From the NCBI GenBank assembly GCA_016432445.1, contig CP066689.1, positions 270,001-302,000 of the forward strand: a stretch of 32,000 nucleotides of DNA, read 5' to 3'. Both the position numbers and the translations under genes were made by a program. Under the pieces are notes generated by a model. The model did not search any database, was not told where the DNA came from, and worked only from the letters and a program-made list of their open reading frames with translations. Shown piece after piece: positions 3,098 through 30,751 of the stretch. The DNA comes from Candidatus Saccharimonadota bacterium. Its GTDB lineage: Bacteria; Patescibacteriota; Microgenomatia; UBA1406; GWC2-37-13. Position 1 is the first letter of the stretch, and every line of letters begins with the position of its first letter.

Positions 3098-4201
3098 ATG
3101 ACAATTATGACTGTTATTTATTATATTTTTTTAGCTTTTCTTTCAATATTTTCCTATGTTCTGATTGATCCTAACTTAACACTTTTTAATCATGAATATT
3201 GGAATATTTTTAGAAATTTTATGGTTAGCTATGGTTATTATCGGAGAGATCTAACCTCAGTTATTTATATTTTTATTATTTTAGTTCTTGTTGGTTTTAA
3301 TTATTATTTTATTCATAAATATAAGCAGTTTAATCCTTTTAAATTAGCAATCGGTATAGCCGTAATTCTTTTTTTCTCCTATCCTTTTTTATCCCACGAT
3401 TTTTTTAATTATATTTTTGATGCTAAGATCTTAACCTTTTATCATCAAAATCCTTATACTCATAAAGCATTAGACTTTCCTGATGATTCATGGCTGAGGT
3501 TTATGCAATGGACTCACCGCACTTATCCTTATGGTCCTTCATTTTTACTGATTACTTTAATACCTTCATTCTTAAGCTTTGGCAAGTTTATTTTAAATTG
3601 GATTTTATTTAAGATTATGTTTATTGTCTTTTATCTTTTATCTGCTTATTTACTAACTAAGATGAATAAAAAATGGGGTATGTTAATGGTAACTTCTCCT
3701 TTAGTTATTATTGAAGGTTTAATATCATTACATAATGATTTTATTGCTTTAGTATTAGCCATAGTAGCAATATTTTATCTGCAGAAAAAGAATAAGATTC
3801 TGAGTGGAACATTTTTTTTACTTTCAGGAGGCATTAAATACATTACTTTACCTTTTGTTTTTTTAGTAATAAATAACAAAATTATAAGAATCGTATCCTC
3901 AGTTATTATTATCGGATTACTAATATATTTATCTTTGTTTTTTGCGATTCAACCTTGGTACTTTTTTGCTTTACTAGTGTTGATACCTTTTTATGAGAAC
4001 TTAATAATAAGAATGCAGATTTTTTTTGGCGGTCTTCTTTTATCTTATTATCCTTATATGAGATTTGGAGAGTGGAGCAGGCCTGAGAATGTTGTCTTAA
4101 AACAACAGATCATAATAGTTTTCTTGATAATAAATATTATTTATCTGCTAATATACTTCTTTCTAAGAAGAACGAAAAAATTTTTTAATAAAAATAAATA
4201 A
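3098..4201 (+). CDS. Polytopic membrane protein, possible GT-C-type glycosyltransferase (family unassigned)
   Basis: 367-aa ORF, hydrophobic throughout with roughly ten helices. It has a loop FLSHDFFNYIFDAKILTFYHQNPY...HRTYPYGPSF. The function rests on context and topology only. Confidence 0.4.
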   Translation: MTIMTVIYYIFLAFLSIFSYVLIDPNLTLFNHEYWNIFRNFMVSYGYYRRDLTSVIYIFIILVLVGFNYYFIHKYKQFNPFKLAIGIAVILFFSYPFLSHDFFNYIFDAKILTFYHQNPYTHKALDFPDDSWLRFMQWTHRTYPYGPSFLLITLIPSFLSFGKFILNWILFKIMFIVFYLLSAYLLTKMNKKWGMLMVTSPLVIIEGLISLHNDFIALVLAIVAIFYLQKKNKILSGTFFLLSGGIKYITLPFVFLVINNKIIRIVSSVIIIGLLIYLSLFFAIQPWYFFALLVLIPFYENLIIRMQIFFGGLLLSYYPYMRFGEWSRPENVVLKQQIIIVFLIINIIYLLIYFFLRRTKKFFNKNK

Positions 4202-18577: not shown

Positions 18578-20044
18578 TTAGAGCGATCTTTTTTGAAAGA
18601 GATACTGAGAATCAAAGTTTTTGATCAAATTTAAATTATATTTTTGAGGGTTAAAATCAAGATCAACTTTTTCTAAAGTTAAACAGGCAGTTTTCTTAAT
18701 TGAAGGGATCTTACTTATAAATTTATTTTTATTATAAATAAGCGATACCTTTTTCTCGAAGTAATAAATGATCGAAGGATGAGGACCATACATCTCTGAA
18801 GTTGAGATTAATAAATTCATTGAGCGTAAAGTATCGTAGGTGTTGCGGTCAGTCGGTGATATTAAGACATAAAGTGAGCTGCATTTTTCTTTAGCTAGCC
18901 ACGATACTTTGTATATCGCGTCATAAGCGGAGTAAAAGCTGTTGAAAAAATTATCAGTAAAGATAACTCTATAGCTTAATGATAAAAATAAAGTTAAAAC
19001 AAGAAAATTTAGTAAATATTTATGTTTTTTTATTAAAACTAAAGGATAGGCTAAAAGAAAAGTTACTTGAGGTATAGCTGGGTAAAGGTACCAGCTGATT
19101 TTTGTTTTGGTTAAGTTAAGAAACAGAAACCAAGGCAGTAAAAAAAGGCTTAAAAATAATTTATCGTCTTTAATTTTTTTAGAAATATAATCTTTGAAGA
19201 TTATAATTAAACTGGCTAAAGCAGCTAGTAGGAAATAAGAGTACTGTGATATAAATACATCAATATAAAAGGTTCTCTTTCCAAAATGAGATTCAATTGA
19301 ACTAGTAACTCTTCTTAAAAGATGGTCGGTAAAATGGACTTTAATAAATGTTTCTTTGTAGACAAAAAGCATTAAAAAAAACCATATTGAAAGAATAAAA
19401 ACTTGCAAGACTGATTTTTTTGCAAATTTAAGAAACTGATTTTTACTTATTTTCTTTCCAATAAGTTGATAAACATAAAACAATCCTAAAATTATTAATG
19501 GATAAAATCCTAAAAGAGATTTACTAAAGACGCCTAAAAATAAGAAAAATAAGCCTAGCCAAAAATTAGAAAAATACAAAAAATAACCAAACCAGCCGAT
19601 AAGCAAGAAAATATCAGTATTTAAAGTTTGTGCCCTTTGCAAAAATATGGGGTTAAAAGCAGTTAAAATAACAGCAAATAAGGAAATCTTTTTACTTTTA
19701 AAAATTTTATTTGACCAGGCATAAATTAAAAGTAAAGCGATCACAGACAAGATTAAACTTAAAACTCTTGTGCTTATTTCAGGCGTAATTGGGACATTAT
19801 TTATTAAAATTCCATTGATAAAAGGCACAAGAGGAGGTTTCTCAAGCCAGGCTTGACCTTGCCATAAAGGGACAAATGATTTTTGAGCTACCATCTCTTT
19901 TCCCACTTGAGCGTATATTGATTCATCCCAGTCGAAAAACGGCATAGGGAAAGCGGCTAGTTTGTAAAAAATTATTAAGAAATAAAAGATTAAAAATCCG
20001 GCCAAAAGCGAGTTTTGTTTAAAGAGAGCAATAATCCGTCTCAT
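18578..20044 (-). CDS. GT39/PMT_2-type (ArnT-like) membrane glycosyltransferase
   Basis: FFDWDESIYAQVGKEMV...WLEKPPLVPF is the classic ArnT/PMT first periplasmic loop. The track starts at a TTG (20053). I prefer the ATG at 20044, which lies 9 nt downstream of a TGaTAGAAT extended -10 box (20054-20062). Confidence 0.75.
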   Translation of the reverse strand: MRRIIALFKQNSLLAGFLIFYFLIIFYKLAAFPMPFFDWDESIYAQVGKEMVAQKSFVPLWQGQAWLEKPPLVPFINGILINNVPITPEISTRVLSLILSVIALLLIYAWSNKIFKSKKISLFAVILTAFNPIFLQRAQTLNTDIFLLIGWFGYFLYFSNFWLGLFFLFLGVFSKSLLGFYPLIILGLFYVYQLIGKKISKNQFLKFAKKSVLQVFILSIWFFLMLFVYKETFIKVHFTDHLLRRVTSSIESHFGKRTFYIDVFISQYSYFLLAALASLIIIFKDYISKKIKDDKLFLSLFLLPWFLFLNLTKTKISWYLYPAIPQVTFLLAYPLVLIKKHKYLLNFLVLTLFLSLSYRVIFTDNFFNSFYSAYDAIYKVSWLAKEKCSSLYVLISPTDRNTYDTLRSMNLLISTSEMYGPHPSIIYYFEKKVSLIYNKNKFISKIPSIKKTACLTLEKVDLDFNPQKYNLNLIKNFDSQYLFQKRSL

Positions 20045-20053
20045 CAGAATCAA

Positions 20054-20062
20054 ATTCTATCA
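20054..20062 (-). promoter_or_regulatory. Extended -10 box TGaTAGAAT for the GT39 gene; the transcript would be near-leaderless
   Basis: Plus-strand attctatca reverse-complements to TGATAGAAT. The same 9-mer occurs at 31240-31248 upstream of another gene. Confidence 0.45.
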
Positions 20063-20077
20063 CAAGTAGTTAATGTA

Positions 20078-20138
20078 TAAAAAGCAAAAAGGCATGGGGT
20101 GTAAATGGGAAAATCTCCCATCAGGGACCACATGCCTT
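20078..20138 (-). terminator. Rho-independent terminator (minus strand)
   Basis: AAGGCATG (20131-38) pairs with CATGCCTT (20089-96) as read on the minus strand. An inner ATGGGA/TCCCAT hairpin sits at 20105-10 and 20116-21. On the minus strand the stem is followed by TTTTTGCTTTTT. On the plus strand the run is A-rich and lies on the wrong side, so the terminator is minus-specific. Confidence 0.75.
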
Positions 20139-20481
20139 CTAGCACTATTCAGTTGCGGAAAGTCTATTGCTTGCCTGGAAAAAACACGTCGACGGGCACG
20201 GCATTTCTTGGCAGCCGGTTTAACTTGGTCTTCAAATGATACTTCTCACTGGCAGGAACTACGACAGCGCAAAGGGGTACTCTGAAAGACCAACCTAGTA
20301 GTCGACTACCCAGAGTGAGAGTCATGTGGCCGGCGTTTTCACCATGTAGGAATTTTCCAATCGCCTCGATAGTGAGTGCACCTGTCGGATACGTCGGTTG
20401 AGCAACGGCACCAGATTGATACTATCGCTTTAAGAATCGCGGGTCACCTATTTTACTGCTATTCATTGCAATTCTCCTTCT
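20139..20481 (-). ncRNA. Unclassified GC-rich structured RNA region: a long 3' UTR or an independent ncRNA
   Basis: No ORF of 60 aa or more on the minus strand. I counted 28/60 and 31/60 G+C in two lines. Nested helices: GCCGG (20214-18) with CCGGC (20330-34) encloses TCTCACT (20244-50) with AGTGAGA (20314-20). CGATAGT (20367-73) pairs with ACTATCG (20421-27). Palindromes GTAGTCGACTAC (20298-309) and CGTCGACG (20187-94) are present. Confidence 0.45.
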
Positions 20482-20760
20482 CTAGTTTTCTTCCCTGCGA
20501 GGTAGTTTCCCTTCTAGGAAATCTTCATAGGAGACAGTTGTTCCTTGCGGTCCAGCCCCGAAAGCTCCTCCGCTTATTCGGACTATGTCCACACCGTCTT
20601 GTCTCTTAAGTCCAGTAAATGGCTCATAAGAGAAGTCTACACCTCCTGTCCCTTTGCAGTCATGACAAACAACCGCTACTCCCTTTGGTTCCTGATAACC
20701 TCTGTAAACTCCAGTTCCACTACACGATTTACACTGAATCTTGACTGTAACTTTATCCAT
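20482..20760 (-). CDS. Small zinc-ribbon protein with two DnaJ-type CxxCxGxG motifs
   Basis: MDKVTVKIQCKSCSGTGVYRGYQEPKGVAVVCHDCKGTGGVDF... The ATG at 20760 follows GGAG with a 6-nt spacer, a canonical SD that is rare in this window. An alternative ATG is at 20772. The track's GTG at 20847 is less likely, because the 8-bp stem pair GGTGGCTA/TAGCCACC (hairpin spanning 20800-20844) lies in that extension. Confidence 0.6.
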   Translation of the reverse strand: MDKVTVKIQCKSCSGTGVYRGYQEPKGVAVVCHDCKGTGGVDFSYEPFTGLKRQDGVDIVRISGGAFGAGPQGTTVSYEDFLEGKLPRREEN

Positions 20761-20940
20761 CTTTTTCTCCATGTAAGCTAAGTACTCACCATAATTGCAG
20801 GTGGCTAAATACGCACGAATCATATTCTTACGTAAATAGCCACCCACAGTGTTTCCGCAAACTGTTAAAGTGCTCTAAATTGGAAATAAGCCGCAAAAAT
20901 GGCCATTTTATGGCTAAATTGAGCTTATTTTCATGGCACT

Positions 20941-20969
20941 ATTATACCACGAAGAGACTTAAGAAGCAA
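20941..20969 (-). promoter_or_regulatory. Near-consensus sigma70-type promoter with an extended -10
   Basis: The minus strand reads TTGCTT (20964-69), a 17-nt spacer ending in TGG, then TATAAT (20941-46). It would drive the zinc-ribbon gene with a leader of about 175 nt. Confidence 0.6.
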
Positions 20970-20996
20970 ACTACTATAGGTTAACACTCGGGGGTG

Positions 20997-21260
20997 CTAT
21001 TTTACAGATTGAAGTTTTTCGGTTATCCAAAGGCGGGCGAGAGAGGAAACACTAATGCCTTTACTTTTTGCAATGCGTTCCAATCTATTTTTTATTCCTT
21101 TTTGAAGTCGAACGATCAATGTTTCCTCTTTTGGTTTTTGAAGTTCCACTGATAAATCAATCTTTTTAAAACTACTCCAATAATCCGCCAAACTATGTGT
21201 ATCCCAAAACTTGGCTTCTTCTGACATTGATTTAAATTTAGGAATTTTTTTCTTTTTCAT
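20997..21260 (-). CDS. Ribbon-helix-helix (CopG/BrnA-like) antitoxin-type DNA-binding protein
   Basis: 87-aa ORF. The N-terminal SEEAKFWDTHSLADYW segment and the C-terminal LIVRLQKGIKNRLERIAKSKGISVSSLARLWI (beta-strand, helix, helix) match my memory of BrnA/CopG-family antitoxins. Confidence 0.6.
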   Translation of the reverse strand: MKKKKIPKFKSMSEEAKFWDTHSLADYWSSFKKIDLSVELQKPKEETLIVRLQKGIKNRLERIAKSKGISVSSLARLWITEKLQSVK

Positions 21261-21269
21261 AAATGAGAC

Positions 21270-21314
21270 TACATGTAATCGTATTACATTTGTATGACAA
21301 ATGTTTACATTATA
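21270..21314 (-). promoter_or_regulatory. Promoter -10 box and overlapping palindromic operators upstream of the RHH gene
   Basis: ACATTTGT-atg-ACAAATGT (21286-21304, 8-bp arms), TGTAAT-cgt-ATTACA (21274-21288) and TACATGTA (21270-77). A minus-strand TATAAT lies at 21309-21314, so the large palindrome covers the predicted transcription start. Confidence 0.55.
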
Positions 21315-21321
21315 TTTGTTT

Positions 21322-22503
21322 TCAAAACTTCACAACTTTTTCGAGGGGTTTTTTGACTTTGAAGGCGTCGTCTTCAAAGACCAGTGATTGAAACATAAAA
21401 TAAGTTCTTATTTCATAAATTGCCGAGATTACAAAAAGTAAGATAAGTATTTTTACCAGATGATTTCTTTTTATTTTTAAAAGATAACTGACAGCATTGC
21501 CGATAAAATAAATGATTGAAGGAATAACAGTATAAGTGCGGAGCATATTTGGGTTTTCTGAAGGAAAAGTAAGTAAAGCGGGGATAATCGAAATAACAAA
21601 ATACCCAAGAAAAAATTGATTATAAAAATTTTTTCTATTTGAAATAGTTACAATAATTCCCAAAATGAAAAAAACGCCAATAATCGGATTTAGCGCGGGT
21701 TTGCCTGTATAGTTATGACGGCCATTCATATCGCCTTTGAAAGAAAACATCAAAGCTGTTTTAGAGATATTCTCTATTGTAAGGCCGGCTTTTTGTACGA
21801 CTGTAAGTTTGGGATGTTTTAAATATAATTGTTGATCCAGACGCTTGTCAGGGTGTCCCAACAAATAAATGATTAAAGGAGAACTTACGAGCAAAAAGAT
21901 AAAGAGATAGGAAAGGATATATTTTCTTTGTTCAATTATTAAAAAGACTAGCGGTAAGAGAAAAAATATCCGTCCCGGATAATAGGAATGAAAAGCCAAA
22001 CCGGCAAATAATCCGCAAAGAATAATATAAATCAGTTTTTTCTTTTCTTTAAAGAGGAAGAAGAAATATAAAGAGGTCAACTCCAAAAATAAGAGAAAGG
22101 TAGTTTCAAATGAAAAACGGGCAAAATTAAAAAACCACCGTTGGGTAACAAAGACAAAAAATAAAATTAATGCTAAAAAATAAGGTTTATGAAATATTCT
22201 TTGGATAATAAGATAAAATATAAGGGCGCAAAGCACTCCAAAAACTGCTGCAGGTAATCTTAGTGCAAAAGTGCTAATGCCTAATACTTTAAAAAAAATA
22301 AGGATAACGTAAAAATACAAAGTGGCATGTCCGGTTGCCAGTTCACTATAAGGAGTATAAGGAATAGTGTTTAAAGAAAGCGCCAGTCTGGCAAACTCGA
22401 CTTCATCAAAAAATAAATATTTGGGAATTTTTGTAAACTCAAAAAAAATAATTAAAGAACAAAATAATAGAAGCAGGGGAAAAGAATTTTTTTTAAAGAT
22501 CAT
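21322..22503 (-). CDS. ArnT/PMT_2-like (GT-C) membrane glycosyltransferase, short form
   Basis: 393-aa ORF. FFDEVEFARLALSL...YSELATGHATLYFYVI is the acidic first-loop motif. It is all-TM and has no large soluble domain. Its start overlaps the upstream GT2 stop by 11 nt. Confidence 0.6.
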   Translation of the reverse strand: MIFKKNSFPLLLLFCSLIIFFEFTKIPKYLFFDEVEFARLALSLNTIPYTPYSELATGHATLYFYVILIFFKVLGISTFALRLPAAVFGVLCALIFYLIIQRIFHKPYFLALILFFVFVTQRWFFNFARFSFETTFLLFLELTSLYFFFLFKEKKKLIYIILCGLFAGLAFHSYYPGRIFFLLPLVFLIIEQRKYILSYLFIFLLVSSPLIIYLLGHPDKRLDQQLYLKHPKLTVVQKAGLTIENISKTALMFSFKGDMNGRHNYTGKPALNPIIGVFFILGIIVTISNRKNFYNQFFLGYFVISIIPALLTFPSENPNMLRTYTVIPSIIYFIGNAVSYLLKIKRNHLVKILILLFVISAIYEIRTYFMFQSLVFEDDAFKVKKPLEKVVKF

Positions 22504-28615: not shown

Positions 28616-28617
28616 AT

Positions 28618-28689
28618 GTCCCCGTAGTTCAACGGATAGAACATGGGCTTCCGGAGCCTAGGATACGGGTTCAATTCCTGTCGGGGACA
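28618..28689 (+). tRNA. tRNA-Arg (anticodon CCG)
   Basis: Hand-folded cloverleaf: acceptor GTCCCCG/CGGGGAC, D arm GTTC/GAAC, anticodon arm TGGGC-TTCCGGA-GCCTA, T arm ACGGG-TTCAATT-CCTGT. 72 nt, no encoded CCA. Confidence 0.85.
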
Positions 28690-28762
28690 GGGCTCGTAGC
28701 TTAGTTGGTAGAGCGCCGCATTCGCATTGCGGAGATCAGGGGTTCGACTCCCCTCGAGTCCA
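28690..28762 (+). tRNA. tRNA-Ala (anticodon CGC)
   Basis: Acceptor GGGCTCG/CGAGTCC with the G3:U70 Ala identity pair, anticodon arm CCGCA-TTCGCAT-TGCGG, T arm AGGGG-TTCGACT-CCCCT. 73 nt, no encoded CCA. Confidence 0.9.
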
Positions 28763-28765
28763 CTT

Positions 28766-29320
28766 TTAGATAAATCTTGGGACGCGGTTTTTATACTTAA
28801 TATAATCTTTTCCAAAGTGTTTCTCTAAAAGTTGTTCTTCCTTCTTAACAATTTTATTAATAATTAGCAGATGGATGATCATAAGAAAGACCGCGTAACT
28901 TTTTATAGCTAGGCAGTAACCTCCAAAAACAAGCATTAATCCCAGATAAATTGGGTTACGGGAAAAAGCGAAAGGGCCGCTTTTGATGATTCTATTTTGT
29001 TCTTTTATTTCATGCTGTCCCGGCAGACCCCAGATTGATCTCATTTCCAGTTTTGCCCAGGCACTTATGAAAAATCCTAATACATAGAGTAAGATTCCTA
29101 TAATTTTAAGGACGCCATCTGCAGAAGTTTGGGGTAAAGGAAAGAAAAAGGCGCTTAAAATGGCAAAAATCAAAGAGATAAATACGATAAAAGGAGTCTT
29201 TAACCTTTCCAAGTTCAGGTGCCTTTTAATATTCCAATATCTTTTTGGCGCTGTTATGGTCCATATTATCTGGAGTATGATGATTCCTGAGGTTAATATT
29301 ATTATTAATATTTTTTGCAT
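28766..29320 (-). CDS. Isoprenylcysteine carboxyl methyltransferase (ICMT/PEMT) family membrane methyltransferase
   Basis: 184-aa ORF with 4-5 TM segments. GPFAFSRNPIYLGLMLVFGG is the NPIYLG signature of the ICMT/phospholipid methyltransferase family. Confidence 0.75.
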   Translation of the reverse strand: MQKILIIILTSGIIILQIIWTITAPKRYWNIKRHLNLERLKTPFIVFISLIFAILSAFFFPLPQTSADGVLKIIGILLYVLGFFISAWAKLEMRSIWGLPGQHEIKEQNRIIKSGPFAFSRNPIYLGLMLVFGGYCLAIKSYAVFLMIIHLLIINKIVKKEEQLLEKHFGKDYIKYKNRVPRFI

Positions 29321-29432
29321 AGATTGATTGTAGTATACATTTCTTAAGATTATTTATTTATTTCTTGACTTAAATATACAATTTTCGTACCATTGGAACA
29401 TTGTTTAACAATAACAATTCAATGGTTCCACT

Positions 29433-30110
29433 ATGACAAAAGCTGACATTAGACGAATTGCAGTTTCTCTGAGAAAAGAAGGGGAAAGTTATAGTCAAAT
29501 AAAGAAGAAAATAAAGATTAGCAAGAGTACTTTAAGTCGATGGCTAAAAGATTATCCTTTAAGTAAAGAACGGATCCGAGCATTAAGAGATAATAATCAG
29601 CAACGTATAGAAAAATTTAGGCAAACAATGCTAAAAAAAAGAGAAAAGTTATTAGCCTCTTATTATAAAGAGCAAAGGAAAAAAATTTTACCTTTATCGA
29701 AAAAAGAATTATTATTAGCTGGTCTTTTTCTTTATTGGGGGGAAGGAAATAAAGCGGTTAGACATATTATTAGTTTAAATAATACAGATCCCCAGGTAAT
29801 AAAATTTACATTAGTTTGGTTAAGGAAAATTATTAATATCCCGAAAGAAAGAATTAGAGTTTATTTACATTTATATAGTGATATGGATGTTAAAAAAGAA
29901 ATTCAATTTTGGGCGAAAACTCTAAATATGCCGGTTGGGTATTTTGATAAACCATATATAAAAAAAAGCAAGCGAATAGACTTAGATCAAAAGGGTTATG
30001 GTCATGGTACGTGTGGTTTAAGAGTGTCAAACACGGTATTAAAAGATAACATCATAATGGCAATTAAAGTAATTGCCGATTTTTATGGAGAAAAAGTTGA
30101 GGAAGTTTGA
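29433..30110 (+). CDS. HTH-domain protein with a LAGLIDADG-like homing-endonuclease-type C-terminal domain (tentative)
   Basis: The N-terminal SYSQIKKKIKISKSTLSRWLK is a resolvase-type HTH. LLLAGLFLYWGEGNK followed by IISLNNTDPQVIKFTLVWLRK ... GTCGLRVSNTVLKDNIIMAIKVI resembles the single-motif LAGLIDADG helix plus beta-sheet layout. Confidence 0.4.
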   Translation: MTKADIRRIAVSLRKEGESYSQIKKKIKISKSTLSRWLKDYPLSKERIRALRDNNQQRIEKFRQTMLKKREKLLASYYKEQRKKILPLSKKELLLAGLFLYWGEGNKAVRHIISLNNTDPQVIKFTLVWLRKIINIPKERIRVYLHLYSDMDVKKEIQFWAKTLNMPVGYFDKPYIKKSKRIDLDQKGYGHGTCGLRVSNTVLKDNIIMAIKVIADFYGEKVEEV

Positions 30111-30128
30111 TATACTTTAACGTTATGA

Positions 30129-30200
30129 GGATCTGTAGTTAAACGGTTATAACGGGACTCTTATAAAGTCCAGTAGAAGGTTCGACTCCTTCCTGATCCA
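30129..30200 (+). tRNA. tRNA-Ile (anticodon UAU)
   Basis: Acceptor GGATCTG/CTGATCC with one U-U mismatch at 6:67, D arm GTTA/TAAC, anticodon arm GGACT-CTTATAA-AGTCC (anticodon TAT at 30162-64), T arm GAAGG-TTCGACT-CCTTC. 72 nt. Confidence 0.8.
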
Positions 30201-30284
30201 CATATGCAAAGGTAGGCAAGCCCTCCGAATCGGAGGGCCAGATACGTGTTCACTTGATGAGAACTTTTAAGTAATAATTTATAA

Positions 30285-30357
30285 GCTGAGGTAGCCAAGG
30301 TGGTCACGGCGGAGGTCTGAAAAACCCCAGATGTCAGTTCGACTCTGACCCTCAGCA
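30285..30357 (+). tRNA. tRNA-Phe (anticodon GAA)
   Basis: Acceptor GCTGAGG/CCTCAGC, anticodon arm GAGGT-CTGAAAA-ACCCC with one A-C mismatch, T arm GTCAG-TTCGACT-CTGAC. 73 nt. Confidence 0.8.
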
Positions 30358-30395
30358 CCCTTCATCTCGATTACATCGAGATTCAGGGTAAACTA

Positions 30396-30641
30396 ATGAT
30401 ATATCTATACATTATTAAATGTAAGGATGGATCATTCTATACAGGTATTACATCTGATCTTGAACGAAGGATAAAAGAACATAACAGCAGAATGAAAAGT
30501 TGTTTACAAAAAAGTAAAGTTCCTGTTGAACTTGTATATTTTGAGAAGTATTCTACAAGAATAGAAGCGGCTCGGCGAGAAAAGGAAATAAAGGGCTGGA
30601 GTAGAATAAAAAAAAGAAAATTAATAAATAGTTTACACTGA
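30396..30641 (+). CDS. GIY-YIG nuclease family protein (small stand-alone URI domain)
   Basis: 81-aa ORF. IYLYIIKCKDGSFYTGITSDLERRIKEHN ... REKEIKGWSRIKK is the canonical GIY-(x10)-YTG, R, E, K.W layout. Confidence 0.85.
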   Translation: MIYLYIIKCKDGSFYTGITSDLERRIKEHNSRMKSCLQKSKVPVELVYFEKYSTRIEAARREKEIKGWSRIKKRKLINSLH

Positions 30642-30674
30642 GGAGCACATTTATCCTTTTCAGTGCTACGAAGT

Positions 30675-30746
30675 GCGGTGGTAGTTCAGCGGTAGAATGT
30701 CTCCTTGCCAAGGAGAAGGTCAGGGGTTCAAATCCCCTCCACCGCT
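30675..30746 (+). tRNA. tRNA-Gly (anticodon GCC)
   Basis: Acceptor GCGGTGG/CCACCGC, D arm GTTC-AGCGGTA-GAAT, anticodon arm TCTCC-TTGCCAA-GGAGA, T arm AGGGG-TTCAAAT-CCCCT. 72 nt. Confidence 0.9.
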
Positions 30747-30751
30747 CTTAC

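Follow-up and report, generated by a model that had tools for sequence, protein, structure and literature searches.

Small acquired islets, or 'morons', are described as units with their own promoter and terminator, and an acquired islet that holds a broken gene is routine in bacterial genomes. Ribbon-helix-helix (RHH) repressors generally autoregulate, and antitoxins of the family PF12441 normally pair with an upstream BrnT toxin. Propagated ('mobile') promoter and 5' untranslated region (UTR) sequences occur upstream of nonhomologous genes. The bacteria of the candidate phyla radiation (CPR) have not been cultured, and next to nothing is known of how they regulate their genes. In the icaR mRNA of Staphylococcus aureus, the 3' UTR pairs with the Shine-Dalgarno (SD) region in a 5'-3' UTR interaction (PMC3868564). 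Here, we analyzed a 32,000-nucleotide stretch of contig CP066689.1 (positions 270,001 to 302,000 of the forward strand; hereafter the window) from a genome of Candidatus Roizmanbacteria (CPR, Microgenomates), and in it a segment that lies between two glycosyltransferase genes, of types GT-C and GT39. A sequence-only reading had described this segment as a compositionally foreign insert made of an RHH gene, a zinc-ribbon gene, and a long structured RNA. We propose with good confidence that it is instead a small horizontally acquired islet with two transcription units and no large noncoding RNA, in which the zinc-ribbon gene would be phage related and the supposed RNA would be ORF-X, a now-dead gene for a beta-rich protein of ~100 amino acids (aa).

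The locus resembles small acquired islets in its own promoter and terminator, its deviant composition, and its phage-related cargo, as well as in sitting between host genes without disrupting them while one of its genes decays. It differs from them in lying on a bacterial chromosome and not in a prophage, and in sharing its leader/trailer frame with other cassettes. As a routine acquired islet with a broken gene, the segment that was flagged matters little. The leader/trailer frame, present in Roizmanbacteria, Gottesmanbacteria, and other Microgenomates-type contigs and absent from Rfam, is a modest genuine lead and a testable handle on posttranscriptional control in the CPR and possibly on cassette mobility.

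An insertion between two glycosyltransferase genes

The segment interrupts a series of glycosyltransferase genes, of the PMT_2/GT39 type and GT2, that follow one another on the minus strand. Two related Roizmanbacteria-type genomes (loci L005 and L006) have the gene order of the window, that is, PMT_2, GT2, PMT_2 (400 aa), GT39, and PMT_2, with GT39 proteins 60% and 58% identical, respectively, to that of the window, and in both the GT-C stop lies 12 nt from the GT39 ATG. In a third locus (L007), both glycosyltransferase genes overlap and the insert is likewise absent. Homology to L005 and L006 stops near 21349-21343 and restarts at ~20066 at 'atagaa..gattc..ATG', which places the insertion slightly off the 20054-21321 of the sequence-only reading. 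The insert is also present in L008, a Logan assembly obtained independently, with 100% identity across 5.5 kb. The segment is a true insertion splitting genes that are contiguous in relatives, and the synteny check thus bore out the earlier claim. The same holds for the claimed lack of an integrase, a transposase, or a flanking direct repeat, as the open reading frames (ORFs) of the segment are the RHH gene, the zinc-ribbon gene, and ORF-X only, none of which falls in such families, and no clear direct repeat was found in a repeat search of the insertion flanks. Both ends are weakly similar to the native junction of the relatives, 'TATAATAGAAAGATTCC'-ATG (window 21300-21317 and 20046-20068, minus strand; L005 6975-7003), with 12/15 matches at the left end and ATAGAA..GATTC..ATG kept at the right end, the relatives being distant. 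This resemblance could reflect a target duplication that has since diverged, or it could have arisen by chance, the sequence being AT rich. The features of the locus are the following.

20066..21343 (boundaries approximate), minus strand: insertion relative to related Roizmanbacteria-type genomes, from the empty junction of the relatives
21286..21314, minus strand: predicted RHH promoter and operator (-10 TATAAT, 21314-21309; palindrome, 21286-21304), read from the sequence
20997..21260, minus strand: RHH gene, 87 aa, CopG/BrnA-type antitoxin family (PF12441 match)
20941..20980, minus strand: predicted cassette promoter, by sequence reading (CCTATAG, 20980-20974; -35 TTGCTT, 20969-20964; TG, 20949-20948; -10 TATAAT, 20946-20941)
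20776..20934, minus strand: conserved 5' leader (small hairpin and T-run, 20914-20902; motif, 20873-20852; hairpin P1, ~20847-20797)
20482..20772, minus strand: zinc-ribbon gene (start ATG 20772 or ATG 20760; stop TAG; two DnaJ-type CxxCxGxG motifs)
20164..20466, minus strand: ORF-X, uncharacterized family of ~100 codons, putative pseudogene here (SD; ATG 20466; in-frame TAG 20424-20422; stop TAG 20166-20164)
20142..20161, minus strand: inverted copy of the leader motif, TTTCCGCAA-N7-GTGC, directly after the ORF-X stop and before the terminator
20079..20136, minus strand: predicted intrinsic terminator (hairpin 20136-20091 with stem GGCAUGUGGU...ACACCCCAUGCC and a nested hairpin, then U-tract 20090-20079, UUUUUGCUUUUU)
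20044..20059, minus strand: GT39's own -10-like box TAGAAT (20059-20054), 9 nt before the ATG (20046-20044); host sequence, outside the insert

In the arrangement that we propose, the islet would have the stop codon of one glycosyltransferase gene on one side and, on the other, the promoter-proximal start of the following one. The first transcription unit would consist of an orphan RHH gene whose promoter is overlapped by a palindromic operator. The second would be a ~900-nt operon comprising an extended -10 promoter, a structured leader, the zinc-ribbon gene, ORF-X, the inverted motif, and the terminator, and it would belong to a family of Microgenomates cassettes with the same promoter, motif, hairpin, and 3' inverted motif but unrelated cargo. 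The signals listed in the sequence-only reading were all recovered, namely, the operator-rich RHH promoter (a TATAAT followed just 3' by the perfect 8+3+8 palindrome ACATTTGT-ATG-ACAAATGT at 21286-21304), the extended -10 promoter at 20941-69 (TTGCTT, 17 nt, TGgTATAAT), the GGAG SD 6 nt upstream of the zinc-ribbon ATG 20760, and the strong closing terminator (20136-20079), whose surroundings (20060-20170) fold at -31.3 kcal/mol. Consensus scans had passed over two of them, the promoter for a -35 hexamer with 3/6 matches and the terminator for a loop longer than 8 nt. A sigma-54 promoter (the leader motif read as GCAC..TTGC) was rejected, its spacing exceeding that of the -24/-12 arrangement by 4 nt, as was a sigma-70 -35 box read as TTAACA, which has no -10 at 16 to 18 nt. 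The terminator would insulate GT39, which lies downstream and has retained a -10 box of its own (relatives have TATAAT/TAGAAA at the equivalent position), and for the glycosyltransferase genes the insertion would thus probably be neutral.

The raised G+C content that had marked the segment as foreign was confirmed by a windowed count (0.44-0.50 over 20000-20800, the flanks being at ~0.30 and the window as a whole at 0.32), but it is uneven. The RHH gene is host-like (G+C 0.33; 0.27 at third codon positions, GC3), whereas the zinc-ribbon gene reaches 0.45, chiefly through codon positions 1 and 2 (GC1 0.56, GC3 0.37), and the region 20139-20481 reaches 0.48. This elevation would derive from a donor of higher G+C and from proteins rich in Gly, Cys, Val, and Ala rather than from RNA structure. 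Elsewhere in the window, five tRNA genes clustered at 28617-30747 on the plus strand (Arg-CCG, Ala-CGC, Ile-TAT, Phe-GAA, and Gly-GCC) have G+C contents of 57-60%, and true RNA genes thus visibly stand out in this genome.

ORF-X and the RHH and zinc-ribbon genes

The stretch taken for ~400 nt of ORF-free structured RNA turned out to hold a protein gene with a stop codon in it. Its frame opens with AGAAGGAG (AGGAG SD), 7 nt, and ATG 20466 and runs for 14 codons to a TAG, after which 85 codons are open up to the final stop. With the conceptual 100-aa product as the query, we found homologues of 99-121 aa (P0125-P0128) at E = 4e-26 to 7e-17, with 49-58% identity over 93-100% of the query, and a profile run against 1.84 billion cluster representatives returned 91 relatives, mostly of ~100 aa, 57 of them at E <= 1e-10. 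The in-frame TAG aligns with a Trp kept in 42/47 relatives and corresponds to a TGG-to-TAG transition. Further damage includes W12L (Trp in 42/47), G79K (Gly in 39/47), and a 4-residue deletion. Between ORF-X and its homologue in L010, differences at codon positions 1, 2, and 3 amount to 0.27, 0.27, and 0.48, and against the four homologous genes, they range from 0.48 to 0.68 at third positions compared with 0.27 to 0.42 at positions 1 and 2. This genome uses TAG as a normal stop, ending the RHH gene, the zinc-ribbon gene, ORF-X, and 3/23 resident genes; genetic codes 4 and 25, considered as alternatives, do not open the frame, the in-frame stop being TAG. Altogether, the SD and ATG, the homologues, the Trp at the position of the TAG, the third-position bias, and the ordinary use of TAG as a stop indicate that ORF-X is a recently inactivated protein gene and not an RNA gene. 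The inactivation of ORF-X by the TAG and the other damaging changes explains why the stretch had appeared ORF free. High G+C without a long ORF in an AT-rich genome does not by itself designate an RNA gene, since a single nonsense codon gives the same picture.

ORF-X has no family in Pfam, PHROGs, PADLOC, or PDB sequence searches. Its relatives are too diverse to yield a search pattern from a 39-sequence alignment, and peptide-pattern searches of viral, genome, and metagenome contigs confirmed no ORF-X relatives. Among the longer family members, a single fusion was found, in which an ORF-X-like C terminus (residues 587-658) is carried by P0195 (659 aa), a cellulose-synthase-type GT2 protein (Glyco_trans_2_3).

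The RHH protein matches PF12441 (CopG_antitoxin) at E = 2.1e-15 and 57.7 bits, against a cutoff of 28, with an alignment that is nearly end to end (residues 4-81 on positions 1-78 of 79). The NCBIfam equivalog models BrnA and RelB were not reached (20 bits against cutoffs of 50-60). By analogy with other RHH repressors, the palindrome at its promoter is a putative autoregulatory operator, and the gene would be autorepressed. No partner toxin gene is present, the 61 nt between the GT-C stop and the RHH start containing no ORF, and the RHH protein is an orphan regulator. The full-length model match and the palindromic operator at its own promoter are thus shared with the CopG/BrnA antitoxins, whereas the absence of an adjacent BrnT or other toxin gene and the scores below the BrnA and RelB equivalog cutoffs set it apart from them. 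In terms of type II (BrnT/BrnA) toxin-antitoxin loci, it belongs to the antitoxin family and has neither an adjacent cotranscribed toxin nor a conserved pair.

A hypothetical protein in a metagenome-assembled genome of Candidatus Roizmanbacteria is 100% identical to the zinc-ribbon protein (121-aa ORF), for which only 4 close homologues were found. Its relatives (L001-L004 and L013-L016), which are 46-70% identical, lie in phage-like contigs, four of which come from IMG/VR (45-224 kb), and GenBank phages gave no match either to the whole insert (blastn) or to the zinc-ribbon protein (tblastn). The two CxxCxGxG motifs, conserved in all relatives, recall the DnaJ cysteine-rich domain and the anti-TRAP zinc fingers (PF00684 and PF15777). 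The zinc-ribbon protein departs from these in having no J domain, two motifs and not four (17.8 bits with DnaJ_CXXCXGXG, PF00684, against a cutoff of 32.7), phage-borne relatives, and a C-terminal half with a conserved (V/I)SYE(D/E)F that has no counterpart in them. Several homologues adjoin genes for polynucleotide kinase-phosphatase and RNA ligase or for HNH endonucleases; in L001 (5069-7258), L002 (3303-5492), L003 (123-1590), and L015 (8013-10972), the zinc-ribbon gene stands beside or between polynucleotide kinase-phosphatase genes and near Rnl1- or Rnl2-type RNA ligases, which hints at a tie to phage RNA-repair modules.

With these three genes described, a working module of RHH protein, zinc-ribbon protein, and ~400-nt structured RNA, for instance, a new toxin-antitoxin or defense system, deserves almost no credence. 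The raised G+C, the lack of a long uninterrupted ORF, a minus-strand fold slightly better than that of shuffled sequence (z = -2.0, compared with -0.07 on the plus strand, hence unremarkable), and the terminator that follows would suit an RNA, but a protein family is recognizable past one TAG, and the substitution pattern is coding. No curated covariance model matches the region: Rfam gave no match at gathering thresholds across the whole window and only chance-level ones (U4, sRNA_1300, and ceN54) at E <= 10 on 19950-21350, and ARAGORN detected no tRNA or transfer-messenger RNA within the segment. An RNase P suspected by eye from 'GCGGAAAGUC' on the plus strand, which looks like the CR-I motif, was rejected, as no RNase P model scores and the sequence is the inverted cassette motif. 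There is no DNA similarity to the segment downstream of the zinc-ribbon homologues, no family in PADLOC-DB v2 at E <= 1 for the RHH protein, the zinc-ribbon protein, the ORF-X homologues, or P0004, and no toxin or defense family in Pfam, PHROGs, or PADLOC for the zinc-ribbon or ORF-X proteins. Moreover, the parts were not found together elsewhere: no RHH or zinc-ribbon gene adjoins the ORF-X relatives (L009-L012), the zinc-ribbon relatives have no RHH or ORF-X neighbor, and none of the 16 loci has an RHH gene beside any zinc-ribbon or ORF-X homologue. Since the RNA part is a degraded protein gene and the parts do not co-occur in the recovered loci, the undescribed three-part module that had been suspected is not supported. 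A decayed type II toxin-antitoxin locus, with the RHH protein as antitoxin, ORF-X or the zinc-ribbon protein as toxin, and the nonsense mutation as the usual toxin inactivation, would agree with the PF12441 membership, the palindromic operator at the RHH promoter, and the nonsense mutation in a small downstream gene. We nevertheless hold it to be very unlikely, because a separate strong predicted promoter and a ~160-nt leader stand between the RHH gene and the downstream genes, the homologues of these never have an RHH neighbor in the loci recovered, BrnT is absent from the 61 nt upstream of the RHH start, and neither protein matches a toxin family in Pfam or PADLOC. As for ORF-X itself, an active two-gene operon in which read-through or suppression of the TAG occurs, or in which a product starts at Met48 (ATG 20325), would account for the 85 open codons past the TAG, the intact SD, start codon, and 3' motif, and the identical sequence in independent assemblies. 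This appears unlikely, given that TAG terminates the neighboring genes as well, that the residue lost is a conserved Trp, that W12L, G79K, and the 4-residue deletion affect conserved positions, and that a Met48 product would be devoid of the conserved N-terminal half.

Several points weigh against the account of a two-unit islet with a dead ORF-X. No insertion mechanism was found, with neither an integrase nor a convincing target-site duplication, and the RHH unit and the zinc-ribbon/ORF-X unit, which differ in G+C (0.33 and 0.45-0.48, respectively), may have arrived together or separately. The roles of the promoter, terminator, and operator are read from the sequence alone, and the leader family described below amounts to ~9 distinct sequences, most of which were found by the motif search itself. 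The structure models help little, that of the zinc-ribbon protein being too poor for use (pLDDT 47) and that of ORF-X, which is beta-rich (pLDDT 68.6), having no significant fold match in the PDB or BFVD (best E, 0.34). Finally, the pseudogene call comes from a single genome lineage in which all recovered assemblies are identical, and TAG read-through or reinitiation could still yield an ORF-X product.

A leader and an inverted 3' motif shared by unrelated cassettes

The leader of the zinc-ribbon operon first appeared when the insert was compared with the ORF-X loci by blastn, as a second, noncoding match to a region preceding the L010 cassette. The window copy of the leader contains a 22-nt motif, GCACTTTAACAGTTTGCGGAAA (20873-20852), for which the shared pattern GCACNTTAACANTTTGCGGAAA matches exactly at 10 places in Joint Genome Institute (JGI) metagenome contigs and at 2 in Candidatus Gottesmanbacteria GW2011_GWC1_43_10, IMG/VR giving no match. 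About 9 distinct lineages share the same order of elements, that is, CCyATAG with -35 and -10 boxes, a small hairpin with a T-run, the motif, P1, and an SD with ATG. CCyATAG followed by a TTGAC/TTTGC -35 box and a -10 box is common to the window, L010, L018, L019, L020, and L026. The copies of the leader and promoter are the following.

Window, 20776-20980, minus strand: leader and promoter of the zinc-ribbon operon
L010, 55-300: leader and promoter
L018, 2315-2560, minus strand: leader and promoter
L019, 1360-1640, minus strand: leader and promoter
L021, L024, L026, L017, and L020: further copies
L004, 45-140: partial leader form, with the closest zinc-ribbon homologue

The genes behind this leader are mutually unrelated; their products include a lipoprotein, a secreted protein, and small membrane proteins, and in L010 the leader precedes a gene for an 86-aa protein and then ORF-X. 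A third gene in that cassette (1076-1310), apparently split by a frameshift, has a KGG-repeat sequence like that of the general stress protein YciG, which hints that such cassettes carry stress-response genes. In L020, a subthreshold match to the AdoCbl-II riboswitch was observed at 1257-1365 on the plus strand (27.8 bits against a gathering threshold of 36.5; E = 0.003).

Covariation supports a conserved structure in this leader, as expected of a cis-regulatory leader, for P1 and across 6 sequences only, most of them found by the motif: 91.9% of cells pair compared with 37-43% when the partners are slid, and 14/23 pairs change on both sides, the observed values being reached by 0/500 shuffles. 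P1 also keeps G-U pairs, which indicate a strand-specific constraint at the RNA level. With a covariance model built from the six sequences (R1), the window copy reaches 67.8 bits and L010, L017, and L020 are also recovered. Searches with nhmmer and R1 found no further leader copies in the window, the Roizmanbacteria relatives, or the phage contigs, and none of these leaders matched a family in Rfam. The SD is predicted to pair with a segment adjacent to the motif in L018, L019, and L021 (unpaired probability, 0.00-0.02) and is not so sequestered in the window copy (0.68), L010, or L026. About 20 nt past the predicted transcription start, the window leader (20902-20914, minus strand) has a hairpin GCCAT-AAA-ATGGC with a T-run, and the leaders of L018, L019, and L020 have an equivalent hairpin and T-run of other sequence; this element could be an attenuator.

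An inverted copy of the motif follows the last gene of the cassette not only in the window but also in L018/L028, L019/L022, L024, L026, and L010, whereas the chance expectation of its 8-mer is ~0.02 per 1.3 kb. The frame is thus common to the window cassette and to five other distinct Microgenomates-type cassettes with unrelated cargo. The inverted copies outside the window are the following.

L018, ~1663-1695: inverted motif
L022, ~3413-3442: inverted motif
L024, ~1774-1804: inverted motif
L026, ~139-166: inverted motif
L010, 1438-1463: inverted motif

In all six whole-transcript folds (630-1320 nt), the 5' and 3' motif copies pair with a predicted probability of 0.87-1.00, and such pairing could close the mRNA into a panhandle, a putative posttranscriptional device for stability, processing, or translation. 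In icaR (PMC3868564), likewise, a 3' UTR sequence is complementary to the 5' UTR of the same mRNA, but the pairing there occurs at the SD of a single gene, whereas the pairing predicted here involves a motif located 5' of the SD and shared across unrelated cassettes. Near-identical promoters and leaders also stand before unrelated genes within one genome (L027 and L028; L021 and L024), as with propagated promoters; the matching 3' element and the covarying hairpin that these cassettes add suggest a functional RNA frame over promoter copying alone.

We therefore raise, tentatively, the possibility that the promoter, the 22-nt motif, P1, and the inverted 3' motif form an undescribed Microgenomates RNA 'frame' for interchangeable small-gene cassettes, in which the panhandle would control stability, RNase III processing, or translation and the repeats may also move cassettes between genomes. 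If so, cassette movement via the repeats would explain the insertion observed here. The motif pair might instead act on DNA, as terminal inverted repeats or as recombinase or regulator sites of a mobile cassette akin to inverted Xer-site modules, a role which we regard as doubtful. It would account for the spread of the cassettes and agrees with the half-sites TTGCAC and TTTGCGGAAA inverted around unrelated cargo in six distinct cassettes, with the demonstrable insertion of the window cassette, and with the presence of at least 2 copies with different cargo in one Gottesmanbacteria genome. However, conservation extends beyond the repeats, to the promoter and CCTATAG 70-110 nt upstream and to hairpins past the 3' copy, and the repeats are therefore not the ends of a conserved unit. 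Moreover, the two inverted copies of the 22-nt motif are internal to the insertion and do not form its ends, the window insertion including the RHH unit outside the repeats, and no recombinase is associated with any cassette, while the G-U pairs kept in the adjacent P1 point to the RNA level.

Start signals of the resident genes

The translation signals of the segment had been regarded as imported because resident gene starts showed no recognizable SD. The contrast is real, with an SD motif at 0/23 resident gene starts, but it follows transcript architecture as much as foreign origin: with a ~160-nt leader and an internal gene, the inserted operon needs SD sites. A -10-like hexamer (>=5/6 matches) ends 4 to 15 nt before the start in 12/23 resident genes, compared with 12% of random control positions; the starts examined include 9486, 9518, 18551, 20044, 27813, and 27836. 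Such -10 boxes abutting start codons suggest that leaderless or near-leaderless mRNAs are widespread in this host.

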